A stretch of 64,000 bases of DNA from a phage. The position numbers and the translations under genes are program-made. Position 1 is the first letter of the stretch. Each line of letters starts with the position of its first letter. The DNA lies in the sequence record PZ357121.2. One strand, written 5' to 3'. A model generated the notes under the pieces. It searched no databases, was not told the DNA's origin, and worked only from the letters and a program-made list of their open reading frames with translations. Of this stretch, positions 25,852 to 53,698 are shown one piece after another.

Positions 25852-26208
25852 TTAACCCCGGAGTTTATTGAGCTCTTCATAATCAATCCAGGATTCTAGC
25901 CCTGACGGCAGGTCACATTCAATGTTCCACAGAAGCTCTTCAATGGCTTGCAGGCGATTATATTCTTCAACGGTAATGGTAACCATTGGTGTAACCGGTT
26001 CTGCCTTTTTAACCATCATGTCGTTCATCAGGACGTAAAGGTCATCACGAACGACAGTGTCGTTCCAACCCCATGATTTGGCTTCGTAAGCTAATGATGA
26101 AGGGAGCACATTTAAAACTTCAATAATAGTTGGAGCATCAGGACCAAGTTCATTGGCACAAACTTCGTATACATCTTGGAAATCTTTAAGATTTAATGAA
26201 TATGTCAT
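25852..26208 (-). CDS. hypothetical protein
   Basis: 118 aa; start region is one copy of a 22-bp direct repeat. Confidence 0.55.
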   Translation of the reverse strand: MTYSLNLKDFQDVYEVCANELGPDAPTIIEVLNVLPSSLAYEAKSWGWNDTVVRDDLYVLMNDMMVKKAEPVTPMVTITVEEYNRLQAIEELLWNIECDLPSGLESWIDYEELNKLRG

Positions 26209-26523: not shown

Positions 26524-26783
26524 TTAAAATATTCTCGCAGTTGGTCAAATCCACCAATGTGACTTCCGTCAGGAGCAAACACTTGAGGCATCGTCAATCC
26601 AACATGTGTTTCACGTCCAAGCTTAGCCAGAAGCTCAGCAATTTTTTCTTCATCGAATACACCTTTTTCTGGCATAACATTAATGAATTCGAACGGCTGT
26701 TTCTTAACAGTCAGCAATCGTTTCGCATTATCACAATAAATGCATTTATGAATAGTAGAGTCATACCCGTACACTTTAAACAT
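26520..26783 (-). CDS. nrdC: thioredoxin/glutaredoxin NrdC
   Basis: 87 aa from ATG 26783 (MFKVYGYDSTIHKCIYCDNAKRLL...), SD AAGGAAAA; matches T4 NrdC. Confidence 0.9.
   Translation of the reverse strand: MFKVYGYDSTIHKCIYCDNAKRLLTVKKQPFEFINVMPEKGVFDEEKIAELLAKLGRETHVGLTMPQVFAPDGSHIGGFDQLREYFK
26521..26542. repeat. 22-bp direct repeat, copy 2 (CATTTAAAATATTCTCGCAGTT)
   Basis: Identical to 26206..26227; covers the nrdC 3' end and the start of gene 26227..26523. Confidence 0.7.
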
Positions 26784-27189
26784 TATTTTTCCTTTCATCA
26801 ATTAAATATGCAATGCCAAATACAATACATGTAATAAAACCTGTGATACAGATAGAAACCAACAACACTGTACCAAAGAACCAAATCAAGTTATCTTTAG
26901 TAGTTTGTTTGATATCCATCTCACGAATTTCTATAGCTATCGTATCACCTTTATTCAGAAGCGTATAAAACGATGGCGATACACGCCTGTCAAAAACTCG
27001 TCCTTGCTCATCTTTATAGACTGCAATAAATTCTAATTTAGAATATTTTCCTGTAGATTGACCTGAGATTAGCTCTACTACCTCCACAGGAATTACTTTA
27101 GTTTCCATGTAAGTATTCTGGCTGTTCCAAATGAATGGAATGATGGCAAAAACTAAAGCTGCAATAAAGCAACGAAGGCTATATCTCAT
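26776..27189 (-). CDS. membrane protein (N- and C-terminal TM segments)
   Basis: 137 aa; hydrophobic N-terminus and C-terminal FFGTVLLVSICITGFITCIVFGIAYLI. Confidence 0.5.
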   Translation of the reverse strand: MRYSLRCFIAALVFAIIPFIWNSQNTYMETKVIPVEVVELISGQSTGKYSKLEFIAVYKDEQGRVFDRRVSPSFYTLLNKGDTIAIEIREMDIKQTTKDNLIWFFGTVLLVSICITGFITCIVFGIAYLIDERKNNV

Positions 27190-27494
27190 TATAATGTTCT
27201 CTCAAATTTGTGGAAGCATTTACGGCATTTCAATTTCAAGTTATCAGTGGTCCAGTTAACCAGTTGGACTTGGATAGTTCCACATTCCGGACATGGATGT
27301 TTTGCTGCCGATTTGGCAGCATTTTCACGTCGTTCAACCATTTTCATGATTTCGTTCCATGCCGGAGGAACGAACTCTTCTTCACTGTGGATTTTATCTC
27401 GCTGAACAAATTCAATCTTTGAACTATCGTCAATAAACTTAACCAAGCCGTGATTAGTGCTCATATCAATATCCTCTAAAAGACGTAGTTTCAT
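27189..27494 (-). CDS. zinc-ribbon protein
   Basis: 101 aa; CPECG...CRKC four-Cys ribbon. Confidence 0.55.
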   Translation of the reverse strand: MKLRLLEDIDMSTNHGLVKFIDDSSKIEFVQRDKIHSEEEFVPPAWNEIMKMVERRENAAKSAAKHPCPECGTIQVQLVNWTTDNLKLKCRKCFHKFERTL

Positions 27495-28444
27495 TATAAA
27501 ACCTCAATGGCATTTCGTAAACCGTCCGCTTTCGCATTCAGAGCTTTTAACGATTTAGTTTGTTCTGCAATCTGGGCTTCGACTTCTTTCAGACGAGATT
27601 TGAGATATTCGCGTTCTTCTCTTAAGTTATCAACTTTTTCTGCTTTAGGCTCTTTAATAGGCTTAGGCTTATACTCGTTAGGGTTCTTCAGCTTAATTTG
27701 AATACGAGAACTGAATAACATTGAACCGTTATCTTCGGTTTCATCATACATTTCTACCACGTCCATGATTCTTAACATCATGCGAAGTTTATAAGACAGC
27801 GAACGAATGGTTTTGTTGCGCTTATTAATTTCTTCGGCTTTCATGGTACCGAGATTACGTGAGTAGTAATAAGGAACCTGGATATCAATTGTCAATGATG
27901 CGTTACCATTACCGGTTGGTTTGAATACTGCAGTAACCCAATCTTTAACATGAACTTTATTTGTACGACCATCGCCGCCTGTGAATAATTTACGTGAATG
28001 TTTAAAAAGCATATTCACTTGGTTATTGAATTCACAAGCAAATTTATCGGCAAATTTAGTTTCAGGAATGGTAGATAACCAATCAGCCAAATGAGTCTTT
28101 TTAACATCGTTAATAATAGTAAATTCAACTAAATCAGTTTTAGGTGTCACAGATTTAATAAAGCTCGGCTTCATAAAGTTTTTAATGTTATCACGAGCTA
28201 CAGTAGAAGATAATAAACGAGAACGTTTGAACCATTGAAGCAGTGTCCCTAATGAATGAGAATACGCATTCTGAGTATCTTTACAGATATGATTTTCTTG
28301 GCCTGTGTATGTACCAAAATCGCGAAGAATACCACTTACTACAACTCGGTGTGGAACATCAAATCCTAATGAACCAGAAGCACGTTGGGCATGAACGTTA
28401 GCGATAAGACCTGCAAAATAATCAATGTAATGTGAACGTGTCAT
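27494..28444 (-). CDS. hypothetical 316-aa protein with C-terminal coiled coil (early gene A)
   Basis: Own promoter and SD GAGAGGAAAA; C-terminal heptad-rich tail. Confidence 0.65.
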   Translation of the reverse strand: MTRSHYIDYFAGLIANVHAQRASGSLGFDVPHRVVVSGILRDFGTYTGQENHICKDTQNAYSHSLGTLLQWFKRSRLLSSTVARDNIKNFMKPSFIKSVTPKTDLVEFTIINDVKKTHLADWLSTIPETKFADKFACEFNNQVNMLFKHSRKLFTGGDGRTNKVHVKDWVTAVFKPTGNGNASLTIDIQVPYYYSRNLGTMKAEEINKRNKTIRSLSYKLRMMLRIMDVVEMYDETEDNGSMLFSSRIQIKLKNPNEYKPKPIKEPKAEKVDNLREEREYLKSRLKEVEAQIAEQTKSLKALNAKADGLRNAIEVL

Positions 28445-28472
28445 AATATTTTCCTCTCGTTAAGATAGAAAG

Positions 28473-28501
28473 ATTATACTCCAACCGTCCTTGGTTGTAA
28501 A
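28473..28501 (-). promoter_or_regulatory. sigma70-type early promoter (TTTACA, 17 nt, TATAAT)
   Basis: Minus strand reads GTTTACAACCAAGGACGGTTGGAGTATAAT about 30 nt upstream of ATG 28444. Confidence 0.55.
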
Positions 28502-28506
28502 CTGAT

Positions 28507-29439
28507 TTATGATTTTAATGCATTCATTGCGTTAAAAAGTTTAGAGTACTGCAACTGGAGCTTGGTAACTACTTGTTGAGCATCACGAAGCTTAGCTTGT
28601 GCTTTGTCAAGTTCAACAGACAGTTGGTCCACAGTGGCTTTGATTTGATTATAATAGTAATCTTCTGCAGGAAGAAGACCGTTAGAGATTTCCAGTTTAG
28701 ACGACGGTGTGCCGTTAAACATAACAGGTTGTGCTGAAGCTGAATTAATCTTACCGATAGTCGGGGCGACAATAATTGACGCTTCGAACGTTGCATTTTC
28801 CTTTTTAAGATTTTTATAATATTCAGAGTCTTTGTGCCACCATGGCGCAGGAACCTTTTTACCAATAGATACACGAGCCTGGATAGCGATATGGCCCTTA
28901 TTCTTGATAACGTCGATAATATTAAGCTCACGAGAATAAATTGCTTTAATCTGGTGAATATTATCACCTAACACTTCCAACGCTTGGTGGAATACACGAG
29001 CAACGTTATCATTCTTAGGTTTATACGTAAGAGTGAACTCGTTCTCACTGATAACCATGATTTCCAACTTATCGTAAGTATATTTCAAATGTTTCATGTT
29101 AATTGCTTGAGGACGAATACGAGAAGCAATGGCCATCAGATTGTTAAGGTTATTCCGGAACTGCTTAGCGAAATATTGTCCTTCACCACCAATACAAAAA
29201 TTACGAAGTTTCTGTTTGGCTAATAAACGGCTGAACTCACCATTTTTAATGAACTCTTTAACGGGGGTGTTAGTAACGCATTCAAATTGAGTAAACTTAC
29301 GAGAAGTAATTCCATAATACGAACAGATTTCCTCAATCTCTTCAGGAGTCTTTACAGGCATACGGATAGGATTAGGACCTGGGGTATATGCGTTCGAGGT
29401 AAATTCTTTGATAAGTTCTCTACGTGTAATAAAAGCCAT
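28507..29439 (-). CDS. hypothetical 310-aa protein with C-terminal coiled coil (early gene B)
   Basis: Own promoter; C-terminal coiled coil KLRDAQQVVTKLQLQYSKL. Confidence 0.65.
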   Translation of the reverse strand: MAFITRRELIKEFTSNAYTPGPNPIRMPVKTPEEIEEICSYYGITSRKFTQFECVTNTPVKEFIKNGEFSRLLAKQKLRNFCIGGEGQYFAKQFRNNLNNLMAIASRIRPQAINMKHLKYTYDKLEIMVISENEFTLTYKPKNDNVARVFHQALEVLGDNIHQIKAIYSRELNIIDVIKNKGHIAIQARVSIGKKVPAPWWHKDSEYYKNLKKENATFEASIIVAPTIGKINSASAQPVMFNGTPSSKLEISNGLLPAEDYYYNQIKATVDQLSVELDKAQAKLRDAQQVVTKLQLQYSKLFNAMNALKS

Positions 29440-29465
29440 TTTATATTCCTCATGTTGAAAAATTT

Positions 29466-29494
29466 ATTATACTCCAACCATCCTTGGTTGTACA
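29466..29494 (-). promoter_or_regulatory. sigma70-type early promoter sharing its spacer with 28473..28501
   Basis: Minus strand reads TGTACAACCAAGGATGGTTGGAGTATAAT; spacer differs by 1 nt from the neighbouring promoter. Confidence 0.5.
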
Positions 29495-30490
29495 TCATTC
29501 CTTAAGAAGTTTTACTACCTGAATAAGATTAGCTCGTTCTGTTTTATTTTTACCGTTTAAGCCTGCTAATCGTGAGATTTCATCGTCAGTCTGTTGAATA
29601 GTTACATTAAGTTCGTTAATCAAAGCTTCAAAGTATTTGATTTGCTCAGCATGTTTTGATTCAAATTTCTGAACTGGAATAACGTCTTGGTTTAGTTCAT
29701 CAATAAGGTCTTTAAGAGCATCTTCTTGGTTGATATCATATTCAACTTCTTTTATTTCTTCAATGAGCTCGTCTTTATATCTAACGTCTTTTAGTCCTGG
29801 TGCTGGTCCTGAAATCTCTTCTTTAGGAGTACAAACATATCCAATACGGTATCCAATGCCGTCTCGCTTGATATCAACTTCGTCAATAAATCCACAATGT
29901 TTAAGACCAGAGCCGATTAGGTCAAAATATCCTTGACGTCGTCCTTCAAACGTTACACGAACTACTAAGACAGTTTTACCTGCAACCTTTTGAAGCTCAC
30001 ATTTATAAAAGTCTGTTGAACCTGAATAACGTGGATGAGTTTTAAAGTTCATCTGACGATCTAGGCCCATTTGTAAGCGTGCTGATACGGCCATAAAACG
30101 TGTTTGGTTCTCGTTAAGATGAGCAACAATCCATTTCAAAGGCATTTTACACTGTTCACGACCGAACAAATCAGTATATCCTAGATTACGCAGAATGTTG
30201 TTAGAGTTAATCATCGACAGAACGTTAAGTTTATTCAGCGCGCTGAAGATTCCATCGGCCATTGATTTTCCGTAACCTTTACACGCTTTAATAAGCGCTC
30301 GCGGTAGATTAGTATAGATTTCAGACGGCATATGAAAATCAAATTTACTAGTCAGTAATTGATGAACTTGGATAGCAATTTGCTCATAATTAAGCGCTCT
30401 GCGATCATTATGGTCTTTAAACCACACTTTAATCTGTGAAGCACATAAACCGTTAATTTCATGTTTTACCGCATCAGATGTAATGCTCAT
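29495..30490 (-). CDS. hypothetical 331-aa protein with C-terminal coiled coil (gene C)
   Basis: Own promoter; acidic coiled-coil C-terminus. Confidence 0.65.
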   Translation of the reverse strand: MSITSDAVKHEINGLCASQIKVWFKDHNDRRALNYEQIAIQVHQLLTSKFDFHMPSEIYTNLPRALIKACKGYGKSMADGIFSALNKLNVLSMINSNNILRNLGYTDLFGREQCKMPLKWIVAHLNENQTRFMAVSARLQMGLDRQMNFKTHPRYSGSTDFYKCELQKVAGKTVLVVRVTFEGRRQGYFDLIGSGLKHCGFIDEVDIKRDGIGYRIGYVCTPKEEISGPAPGLKDVRYKDELIEEIKEVEYDINQEDALKDLIDELNQDVIPVQKFESKHAEQIKYFEALINELNVTIQQTDDEISRLAGLNGKNKTERANLIQVVKLLKE

Positions 30491-30525
30491 AACTATTTCC
30501 TCAGATTGAATTGGAACTCAAAACC

Positions 30526-30551
30526 ATTATAACCCGTCCTTGGGTAAAGCG
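30526..30551 (-). promoter_or_regulatory. candidate MotA-dependent middle promoter
   Basis: Minus strand reads CGCTTTA then 13 nt (CCCAAGGACGGGT) then TATAAT; shares the CCAAGGACGG element with the two early promoters. Confidence 0.4.
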
Positions 30552-30552
30552 T

Positions 30553-31080
30553 TTATGCGTGAACCGTCTTTAAACGTTCTTCAAATTTCCGAAGAGTACT
30601 AATACGTTCTGCTTTCTGTTTTGTATAGTTTGCAATACGTTCTGAAGTGAGAGCGTATCGTTCGTTTACTGTTTCTTTCATGAAGTCAGGGATTTCACGA
30701 GAAGCTTTAATTTCATCAAACTTATCGAGTACTGCCTGGTCTTCAGCGATTAAATTTTCGTACATCTCGATATCTTTCTTGATAAACTCGATATCTTCCT
30801 GGGTTACTTTGGATAAACGAGATGCTTTATCCTTTTTGTACTGCTCGTTAGTTTCACGAGACCAGAATAATGTACGTTTTTTGTTAGTGTTTTTGTAGAC
30901 TTCCACAATTCCAACTGAATCGATGATAGCAATCCAATTCCAGCGAGATTTGAAAATCTGACCTCCGTCCACGGTAATCTCGTTACCATAAGCAACGTCA
31001 TTAAAGAACTTGCTTTGTGCTTCAGATTTAAATTTACCGTCGTTATAATTTACCAGGTTGAAAATATCTTTAGCGTTCAT
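30553..31080 (-). CDS. hypothetical protein
   Basis: 175 aa ORF; early promoter GTTTAC..TATTAT with inverted repeat upstream. Confidence 0.6.
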   Translation of the reverse strand: MNAKDIFNLVNYNDGKFKSEAQSKFFNDVAYGNEITVDGGQIFKSRWNWIAIIDSVGIVEVYKNTNKKRTLFWSRETNEQYKKDKASRLSKVTQEDIEFIKKDIEMYENLIAEDQAVLDKFDEIKASREIPDFMKETVNERYALTSERIANYTKQKAERISTLRKFEERLKTVHA

Positions 31081-31138
31081 GTTTTACCTCCAGTAGTTGA
31101 TAGGTCTATAATAACATAACCATAGACCTTGTAAACAA

Positions 31139-31426
31139 CTAAAAGAAACTTTTTTCGGTATTTTTTCCACTGAACCAAACCGATTTCGGAATTTTCTGTA
31201 ATTTTTCAGATTTAAGTTTCTCTTCCTGTTCTTTCTTATATGCATCCTTGTCGTACCGGAACAACTCTAGGGCATTCTTTTGTAGACGGTCTAAGGTAAT
31301 TAAGGCTTTAGTTTTTCCTTTCAAGGAAGAGTCCTGGCGAACCTCCTCGCTATATTGCATCGTAGAACTAACCATACGATGAGCATAGAGTTCGACTGCG
31401 GCTTTAATTTTTTGCATAAAATCCAT
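31139..31426 (-). CDS. hypothetical protein
   Basis: 95 aa ORF. Confidence 0.55.
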   Translation of the reverse strand: MDFMQKIKAAVELYAHRMVSSTMQYSEEVRQDSSLKGKTKALITLDRLQKNALELFRYDKDAYKKEQEEKLKSEKLQKIPKSVWFSGKNTEKSFF

Positions 31427-32566: not shown

Positions 32567-32663
32567 TTCGTTTCGATAGGTCTATAGTATCATATCCTAA
32601 AAGCATGTACACTACTTTTTTAAAATATTTTAACCCCCTAAAGGGACCCGAAGGTCCCCACAT

Positions 32664-32945
32664 TTACTTATCGCACTTAGCAACATAATTAGGCATATCA
32701 CAGAATACGGAGCGAGTAACTACTCGGCCCTTTGACCATGCTTCAGTTGCTTGTCCGGCCGTGCTATTAATATAGCTTGATCTAATGTTCTCAATACCCT
32801 GAGAATGTGATGCATTTACCGAACCATTAGAAGACCCAGAAGACTGGTTACCACCAGCTCCTGCACTACCGCCAGCAGCACCCGTGGTAGCACCAACAGA
32901 GAATGCCATCATTACTGCGAATAAACCAATTACTAATTTTTTCAT
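32664..32945 (-). CDS. secreted Gly/Ser-rich small protein
   Basis: 93 aa; signal peptide MKKLVIGLFAVMMAFSVGA then G/A/S-rich region and C-terminal Cys pair. Confidence 0.6.
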   Translation of the reverse strand: MKKLVIGLFAVMMAFSVGATTGAAGGSAGAGGNQSSGSSNGSVNASHSQGIENIRSSYINSTAGQATEAWSKGRVVTRSVFCDMPNYVAKCDK

Positions 32946-49342: not shown

Positions 49343-49412
49343 ATTATTACCTTTCAATTGGTGGTTTATTATCCAATGAGAGCATTATACTCTGCTCTCA
49401 AGAGTTTGTAAA

Positions 49413-53659: not shown

Positions 53660-53698
53660 GATAGGACTACTATAACATAGTCCTATCATCATGTAAAC
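53660..53698 (-). promoter_or_regulatory. early promoter with 28-bp perfect palindrome (PeSL-type cassette)
   Basis: GATAGGACTA-CTATAACA-TAGTCCTATC then tgtaaac; identical to the 35284 copy. Confidence 0.55.

Follow-up and report, generated by a model that had tools for sequence, protein, structure and literature searches.

The window analysed here, a 64-kb (64,000-nucleotide) stretch of phage sequence record PZ357121.2, carries three tandem minus-strand genes, called A, B and C below, that constitute the Mosigvirus counterpart of the nrdC.3-nrdC.6 accessory module of T4. We lean towards reading them as dispensable host-range or anti-defence proteins that stand behind dispersed, recombining cassettes akin to the composite promoter/stem-loop cassettes (PeSLs) of T4-type phages. 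The initial annotation had singled out three tandem open reading frames (ORFs) of similar size, each with its own promoter; both observations hold, with products of 316, 310 and 331 amino acids (aa) and with two sigma-70-type promoters and one MotA-box-like promoter that all contain the sequence CCAAGGAYGG.

The window derives from a Mosigvirus (RB69/HX01-type) T-even phage and shows 96-98% megablast identity to Mosigvirus genomes; relatives of the A-B-C segment at this level are found in numerous Mosigvirus genomes from Escherichia and Shigella, among them HX01, JS09 and phi25-307. The neighbours of A-C are those of T4, namely gene 49, pin, nrdC and nrdC.2 through nrdC.11, and the gene order agrees with that of T4 from nrdC to nrdC.11, except that nrdC.4 is missing and an nrdC.7-like gene has shifted to the nrdC.1 position. 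The succession of NrdC.6-type, NrdC.5-type and NrdC.3/4-type genes is kept across four lineages.

Each of the three genes belongs to a T4 family. Gene A (27494-28444) is the ortholog of T4 nrdC.3 and a paralog of nrdC.4: it is 57% identical to NrdC.3, with weak similarity to NrdC.4, and matches phrog_1435 along residues 1-316 (E 7e-104), the same family that both T4 genes match, while PF26897 (Phage_T4_Y04OP) is carried by its close homologs, which are 94% identical. T4 has two genes of this family, both preceded by the AGGA-hairpin cassette described below, as is A, whereas the window, devoid of nrdC.4, has one. Gene B (28507-29439) is a member of the NrdC.5 family (phrog_2351). It matches the Pfam profile DUF7235 (PF23882; gathering score, 30 bits) over its full length, with residues 15-309 aligned to profile positions 1-307 (373.5 bits, E 1.2e-111), and T4 NrdC.5, which shares both the Pfam and the PHROG family, does so with 420.6 bits (E 5e-126). 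The alignment of the B family with T4 NrdC.5 by hhalign reaches 94%, and the annotated NrdC.5 of RB69 is 86% identical to B. As in T4, this gene lies between the NrdC.6-type and NrdC.3/4-type genes and its product ends in a strong coiled coil; unlike T4 nrdC.5, which has no promoter cassette, B has its own. A full HMMER library search with the B family returned only its own 50%-identity cluster and a 67-aa fragment. Gene C (29495-30490) belongs to the NrdC.6 family, as seen from its match to phrog_2257 (E 7e-127), from the presence of PF26899 (Phage_T4_Y05B) in its homologs and from the hhalign value of 99.8% with T4 nrdC.6. In both phages a conserved middle-type cassette after nrdC.8 lies upstream of this gene, but in T4 nrdC.7 is placed between the two, whereas the nrdC.7-like gene of the window is near nrdC. 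A GAGG-type ribosome-binding site precedes each of A, B and C.

The functional argument comes from the T4 homolog of B. A T4 clone deprived of accessory genes cannot infect ECOR17 unless dsr1 is deleted, plasmid-borne dsr1 protects MG1655 against this clone, and plasmid expression of T4 nrdC.5 restores plating of the deletion phage on MG1655 carrying the ECOR17 dsr1 gene, which provides the Dsr1 sirtuin defence (Srikant, Guegler and Laub 2022 eLife, PMC9391042). Judged by homology, inhibition of a Dsr1-type sirtuin is the most likely role of B. DSAD1, a phage inhibitor of the DSR2 sirtuin defence, is a possible functional analogue, as it too acts against an NADase with a SIR2 domain; it comes from another phage group and targets DSR2 rather than Dsr1. 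Homology is not expected. B and C are only 24% and 29% identical to their T4 counterparts, compared with 83% and 78% for the flanking nrdC.8 and nrdC.10. The genes are also dispensable in nature, since phage ESCO47 lacks B and phage ACG-C40 lacks most of nrdC.3-5. Such divergence and natural loss fit dispensable host-range or anti-defence genes, and so does a gene nearby, 49.2, whose product in T6 inhibits the OLD defence (PMC13096335).

The initial annotation had allowed for the three proteins turning out to be well-known structural proteins or metabolic enzymes. They do fall into the catalogued NrdC.3/4, NrdC.5 and NrdC.6 families, but with no enzyme match. Homologs of NrdC.3, NrdC.5 and NrdC.6 bear the label "thioredoxin" in many GenBank records, which could be taken to favour ordinary, unannotated functions of this kind. 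However, this label looks like a name propagated from the "nrdC.x" gene designations, as neither a thioredoxin nor a glutaredoxin domain turns up in any of the three proteins. The proteins likewise match no Pfam enzyme family, no NCBIfam or PADLOC entry and no PDB sequence, and the genes are lost in natural phages. We consider ordinary structural or metabolic functions highly improbable.

A, B and C have a common layout, in which an alpha/beta body of about 250 aa is connected by a variable linker to a helical tail at the C-terminus. The coiled coil that had been predicted at the end of each protein is clear for B, moderate for A and weak for C. In B the tail (aa ~263-310, 28510-28653, ending in LFNAMNALKS) has hydrophobic residues at 12/12 a/d heptad positions between aa 263 and 304, and its score of 0.87 exceeds the shuffle maximum of 0.58. 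In A (aa ~268-316, 27497-27643, ending in LRNAIEVL) AlphaFold2 (AF2) predicts a single helix of 41 residues at 275-315, and 10/12 a/d positions are hydrophobic. The helical region of C (about 75 aa, aa ~256-331, 29498-29725, ending in LIQVVKLLKE) is modelled at low confidence as helices with breaks between residues 256 and 330, and its heptads (10/12) are weak, with a score inside the shuffle range.

On the evidence of profile comparison, A and B are diverged paralogs. Word-based searches with the three proteins found close relatives only, and hhalign between shallow alignments of their families was negative; the idea of three close duplicates was rejected on that ground, the direct comparison remaining negative until the families were enlarged with members of two further T-even lineages. 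The enlarged NrdC.3/4 and NrdC.5 families align colinearly over their full length with an hhalign probability of 90% in local and 96% in global mode (E 1.6e-6 to 1.6e-9), and still of 80% once the last 60 residues, which contain the coiled coil, are removed, compared with 0.1% for reversed-sequence controls. The two families share an N-terminal TR-x-E-Y, L-x-x-F, F-x3-F/V-R-x-N...S-R, K-P and a terminal L-x-x-A-h-x-x-L-K. The NrdC.6 family reaches a probability of only 10-38% with the A family and of 37-73% with the merged A+B profile. Between A and C, the secondary structures that AF2 predicts at low confidence agree best in the hhalign register (67%, compared with 39-60% when shifted). C may be a more distant paralog, a kinship that is uncertain since it rests mostly on the tail. 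The families themselves were already catalogued; the NrdC.3/4-NrdC.5 paralogy is a new point.

These resemblances could also be read structurally, with A, B and C as subunits of one hetero-oligomeric host-takeover complex held together by their C-terminal coiled coils rather than as independent anti-defence proteins. The similar size and order of secondary structures, the terminal L-x-x-[AV]-h-x-[LAV]-L-K common to all three families and the constant order of NrdC.6, NrdC.5 and NrdC.3/4 genes in four diverged lineages would agree with such an assembly. Nevertheless, synteny is weak evidence because T-even gene order is generally conserved, T4 nrdC.5 by itself restores infection of Dsr1 cells, and phages lacking only B (ESCO47) or nrdC.3-5 (ACG-C40) are viable; a single complex thus appears unlikely to us.

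Independent anti-defence proteins are the reading that we favour. Each of the three genes stands behind a promoter cassette. P_A and P_B are the best sigma-70-like sites of the minus strand and both have a 17-nt spacer. P_A (28473-28501) reads TTTACA-ACCAAGGACGGTTGGAG-TATAAT and agrees with the sigma-70 consensus at 11/12 positions (-35 at 28496-28501, -10 at 28473-28478, predicted start ~28466); P_B (29466-29494) reads TGTACA-ACCAAGGATGGTTGGAG-TATAAT and agrees at 10/12 (-35 at 29489-29494, -10 at 29466-29471, predicted start ~29459). Together they form a 27-nt direct repeat, identical at 26/27 positions, whose copies at 28473-28499 and 29466-29492 flank B. The middle-type cassette P_C (30526-30554) reads AAACGCTTTA-CCCAAGGACGGGT-TATAAT (-10 at 30526-30531, predicted start ~30519), and its MotA-box-like sequence AAACGCTTTA, at 30545-30554, overlaps the nrdC.8 stop codon. 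The T4 MotA box is (a/t)(a/t)(a/t)TGCTT(t/c)A, centred near -30 and 11-13 bp from the -10. In AAACGCTTTA a C replaces a T of TGCTT and the spacing is 13 nt; the orthologous T4 sequence after nrdC.8, upstream of nrdC.7, is CCGCTTTA-TACCAAGGATGG-TATAAT, with the same C and a spacing of 12 nt. The early and middle versions of one cassette are a new point. CCAAGGAYGG occurs three times in the window, exclusively at P_A, P_B and P_C, where 0.06 copies are expected (three or more in 0/100 shuffles), and a covariance model of the cassette, which matches P_A with 34 bits (E 4e-8), P_B with 32.7 bits and P_C with 24.4 bits, finds no further copy in the window.

The initial annotation had reasoned that promoter spacers are not normally conserved. 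This premise does not hold here, as at least two other families of repeated early-promoter cassettes make conserved spacers common in this genome. Minus-strand cassettes with near-identical spacers have -35 elements starting at 53697, 46605, 45310 and 35321 (also 18306, 31135 and 35773), and at 49412 and 18006. One family reads TTTACA-n-GATAGGACTATGT-TATAGT-AGTCCTATC, with 10-bp inverted arms straddling the -10, and the other AACTCTTGAGAGnnGAG-TATAAT-nCTCTCnTTGGATAATAAA. At the 3' end of A (27489-27521), the stop codon and the start of nrdC.2 overlap in the sequence TAATG, an arrangement suggestive of translational coupling. A promoter-like TTTACG-17-TATAAT spans this junction and is probably not functional for nrdC.2, since transcription would start downstream of the nrdC.2 ATG.

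CCAAGGAYGG is the core of a hairpin of 5-6 bp with an AGGA loop, located inside the promoter spacer. In P_A it reads CAACC-AAGGAC-GGTTG (28482-28497, with GGAG at 28479-28482), in P_B CAACCA-AGGA-TGGTTG (29475-29490, with GGAG adjoining at 29472-29475), where it is present in the minimum free energy fold, and in P_C ACCC-AAGGAC-GGGT (30532-30545). The T4 hairpins are AGCCA-AGGA-TGGCT (nrdC.3), CCACA-AGGA-TGTGG (nrdC.4) and TTATACCA-AGGA-TGGTATAA (nrdC.7), and an example from other lineages is CATCCA-AGGA-TGGATG. Across 15 distinct cassettes the AGGA loop is invariant while the stem varies in a compensated manner: 91.1% of cells are paired, compared with 66.4% in shuffles, 4/6 pairs change on both sides, and the stem covariation score is 0.584, compared with 0.134 in shuffles (0/500) and at most 0.133 in slid-register controls. 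Some stems contain G-U pairs. No Rfam family matches the hairpin, and a terminator scan shows no terminator-like site at the cassettes, for which reason a classical intrinsic terminator was rejected. This covarying AGGA hairpin within promoter spacers is a new point.

The covariation bears on the suggestion, present in the initial annotation, that the shared spacer is a bound regulatory element. In its explicit form, the spacer core CAAGGAYG would be a duplex-DNA operator at which a phage or host regulator switches the promoters together. The invariance of the core in the 15 cassettes, its location between -35 and -10, such that a protein sitting there would obstruct RNA polymerase, and its occurrence at motB-region promoters are compatible with this idea. 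However, the flanks change in sequence while preserving pairing, whereas the half-sites would be expected to stay constant for a dimeric protein that binds the duplex; the loop, which is the one fixed part, is asymmetric, and its invariant AGGA is not palindromic. In addition, the placement of the core with respect to the -10 varies by 0-7 nt among copies. We regard an operator as quite improbable.

The G-U pairs would suit a role in RNA, and the cassette could be mainly a processing signal in which the AGGA hairpin and the following GGAG-UAUAAU form a RegB/S1 cleavage site that separates cistrons and leaves a hairpin-capped upstream mRNA. The RegB target is a single-stranded GGA with an A-rich tail, with the consensus GGAGRAYARAA (PMC1702504). 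P_A and P_B read GGAGUAUAAUC/A and match it at 8/11 and 9/11 positions, respectively (4/7 and 5/7 in the downstream part). Against this, GGAG is missing wherever the hairpin abuts the -10 (T4 nrdC.4, T4 nrdC.7 and P_C of the window), position 10 is a U where A is strongly favoured, and no site upstream of nrdC.3 is named among the cleaved sites in the part of the RegB study that was covered. RNA processing as the main function has, in our view, a rather slim chance of being correct.

We return to the cassette as a dispersed promoter/hairpin unit. Duplication of a cassette, the other explanation offered in the initial annotation, agrees well with the data: the spacer is part of a repeated promoter/hairpin cassette that is found at other T-even loci and is tied to gene gain and loss. 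The T4 nrdC region has three copies, upstream of nrdC.3, nrdC.4 and nrdC.7. In Mosigvirus HX01, two further cassettes lie about 45 kb away in the dexA-motB region, one of them sharing 45/46 nt with P_A; they precede a hypothetical gene after dexA and a motB-like gene, both unrelated to A-C. These copies at dexA.1 and motB led to rejection of a cassette private to A, B and C.

Gene loss at a cassette is illustrated by ESCO47, in which C is directly followed by A. The lone cassette between them is a chimera that has the 5' context of P_B and its TGTACA, followed by the 3' context of P_A, and the arms of its hairpin come from different variants and fail to pair at the fourth position of the stem. 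Recombination inside the cassette with removal of B would be expected to give just this product, and such natural cassette-mediated loss of B is a new point. T4 nrdC.4, absent from the window, has a cassette on either side. T4 amplifies and deletes accessory genes via microhomologies of 6-10 bp, so that the 27-nt P_A/P_B repeat is more than enough for recombination. The natural deletion in ACG-C40 (locus L132, 1000-1440) joins nrdC.5 at codon ~71 to the final ~60 codons of nrdC.3 in a different frame, with the loss of nrdC.4 and of the greater part of nrdC.3 and nrdC.5; its junction does not fall at a cassette. Phage moha has an additional 66-aa ORF (locus L009, 6975-7175), absent from the window, between the C-type and B-type genes and directly upstream of a cassette.

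These properties make the cassettes a variant of the known PeSL/PmSL class, the composite promoter/stem-loop cassettes of T4-type phages for which crossovers within the stem-loop have also been described (Arbiol et al. 2010 PMC2839356; Comeau et al. 2014 PMC4122927). In both cases, repeated sigma-70-like (TTTACW-N17-TATAAT) or Mot-box promoters are joined to a stem-loop, and the units cluster in hyperplastic regions ahead of accessory ORFs. They are also associated with indels (ESCO47, T4 nrdC.4 and the 66-aa ORF of moha) and recombine within the stem-loop, as in the ESCO47 chimera. The present stem-loop differs in being short, with an invariant AGGA loop and no U-tract.

A scan of the sequence collection for CCAAGGAYGG...TATAAT returned mostly unrelated contigs, and only loci with a T-even-type cassette or nrdC-region genes were kept for the analysis above. 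In several of the non-T4 viral contigs (L033, L077, L042, L098 and L103) a consensus TTGACA is found ~17 nt upstream and longer palindromic arms surround AGGA, as in TAGCCCA-AGGA-TGGGCTA. Promoters of further phages may have the AGGA-hairpin spacer as well, although the collection is so large that these matches could also be due to chance.

Several points weigh against the reading of A, B and C as anti-defence proteins behind PeSL-like cassettes. The anti-defence or host-takeover role put forward in the initial annotation for all three genes stands for B, where support is limited to homology with T4 NrdC.5, and has no such support for A or C. Even for B, anti-Dsr1 specificity may not be conserved at only 24% identity, and our literature search found no later mechanistic work on NrdC.5 against Dsr1. 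The AF2 models are poor (predicted local distance difference test scores of 58.6 and 47.7), so that no fold or binding surface can be inferred, the same outcome as in the initial annotation, and the hhalign relationship of C to A and B is gone once the coiled-coil tail is removed. As for the hairpin, it is thermodynamically weak (z-scores from -2.0 to +1.0), part of the cassettes came from a search pattern in which the inner 3 stem pairs are fixed, and the phylogenetic relatedness of the cassette sequences inflates the shuffle statistics. A terminator role is unproven, given that the hairpin has no U-tract, and the stem-loop of described PeSLs lies upstream of the -35, whereas here it is placed within the spacer, with 2 nt in common with the -35.

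The surroundings of the module differ from T4 in a few places. The nrdC.7-like gene (26776-27189, minus strand), which adjoins nrdC, encodes a 137-aa predicted membrane protein with 41% identity to T4 NrdC.7; the T4 gene is located between nrdC.6 and nrdC.8. Blastp finds no homolog of T4 nrdC.1 among the window ORFs. The arrangement has the appearance of a relocated or replaced gene. A 118-aa ORF (25852-26208, minus strand) occupies the position of T4 gene 49.2, for which blastp detects no homolog in the window. T6 Gp49.2 inhibits the OLD defence (PMC13096335), and the 118-aa ORF, given its position, may be a different counter-defence allele. Between nrdC.10 and nrdC.11, where T4 has no annotated gene, a 93-aa ORF (32664-32945, minus strand) has an N-terminus resembling a signal peptide and a stretch rich in Gly, Ser and Ala (MKKLVIGLFAVMMAFSVGATTGAAGGSAGAGG...). 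A 57-nt direct repeat with 70% identity (31099-31155 and 32575-32631) spans the promoter regions that precede nrdC.8 and nrdC.10, and the corresponding T4 regions likewise resemble each other.

Based on the above data, we propose the following scheme for the module. A and B would be made early and C in the middle period of infection, transcription being supplied by the cassette, whose early and MotA-type versions would differ in spacer length by about 5-6 bp. B would neutralise a Dsr1-type SIR2 NADase defence in the manner of T4 NrdC.5, likely by direct binding as a coiled-coil oligomer, and A, possibly also C, would be aimed at other host factors. In read-through RNA, the hairpin would mark the 3' end of the upstream cistron. 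At the DNA level, the direct repeats would serve as recombination sites for deletion, insertion and amplification of single genes, a step that the natural variants support. A more speculative extension, which we put forward tentatively and hold to be rather doubtful as a whole, is that a single, rapidly evolving superfamily of inhibitors with coiled-coil tails comprises NrdC.3, NrdC.4, NrdC.5 and perhaps NrdC.6, each paralog being tuned to a different host immune protein with Dsr1 as the first known target. The cassette would be dual-purpose, acting in DNA as a recombination site for the amplification, deletion or exchange of single inhibitor genes and in RNA as a recognised stem-loop, and an indel of ~5-6 bp in the spacer would switch between early (sigma-70) and middle (MotA) timing.

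The scheme gives a testable role to three genes annotated as "hypothetical" and often mislabelled as "thioredoxin". B would be a divergent allele of the one gene known to act against Dsr1, and the paralogy of A and B makes NrdC.3 and NrdC.4 candidates for the inhibition of other defences. The covarying spacer hairpin is a small, well-defined element that is open to direct functional test. Lastly, ESCO47 and its chimeric cassette provide a concrete route by which T-even phages may gain, lose and amplify single counter-defence genes, a route that bears on the prediction of host range for therapeutic T4-like phages.

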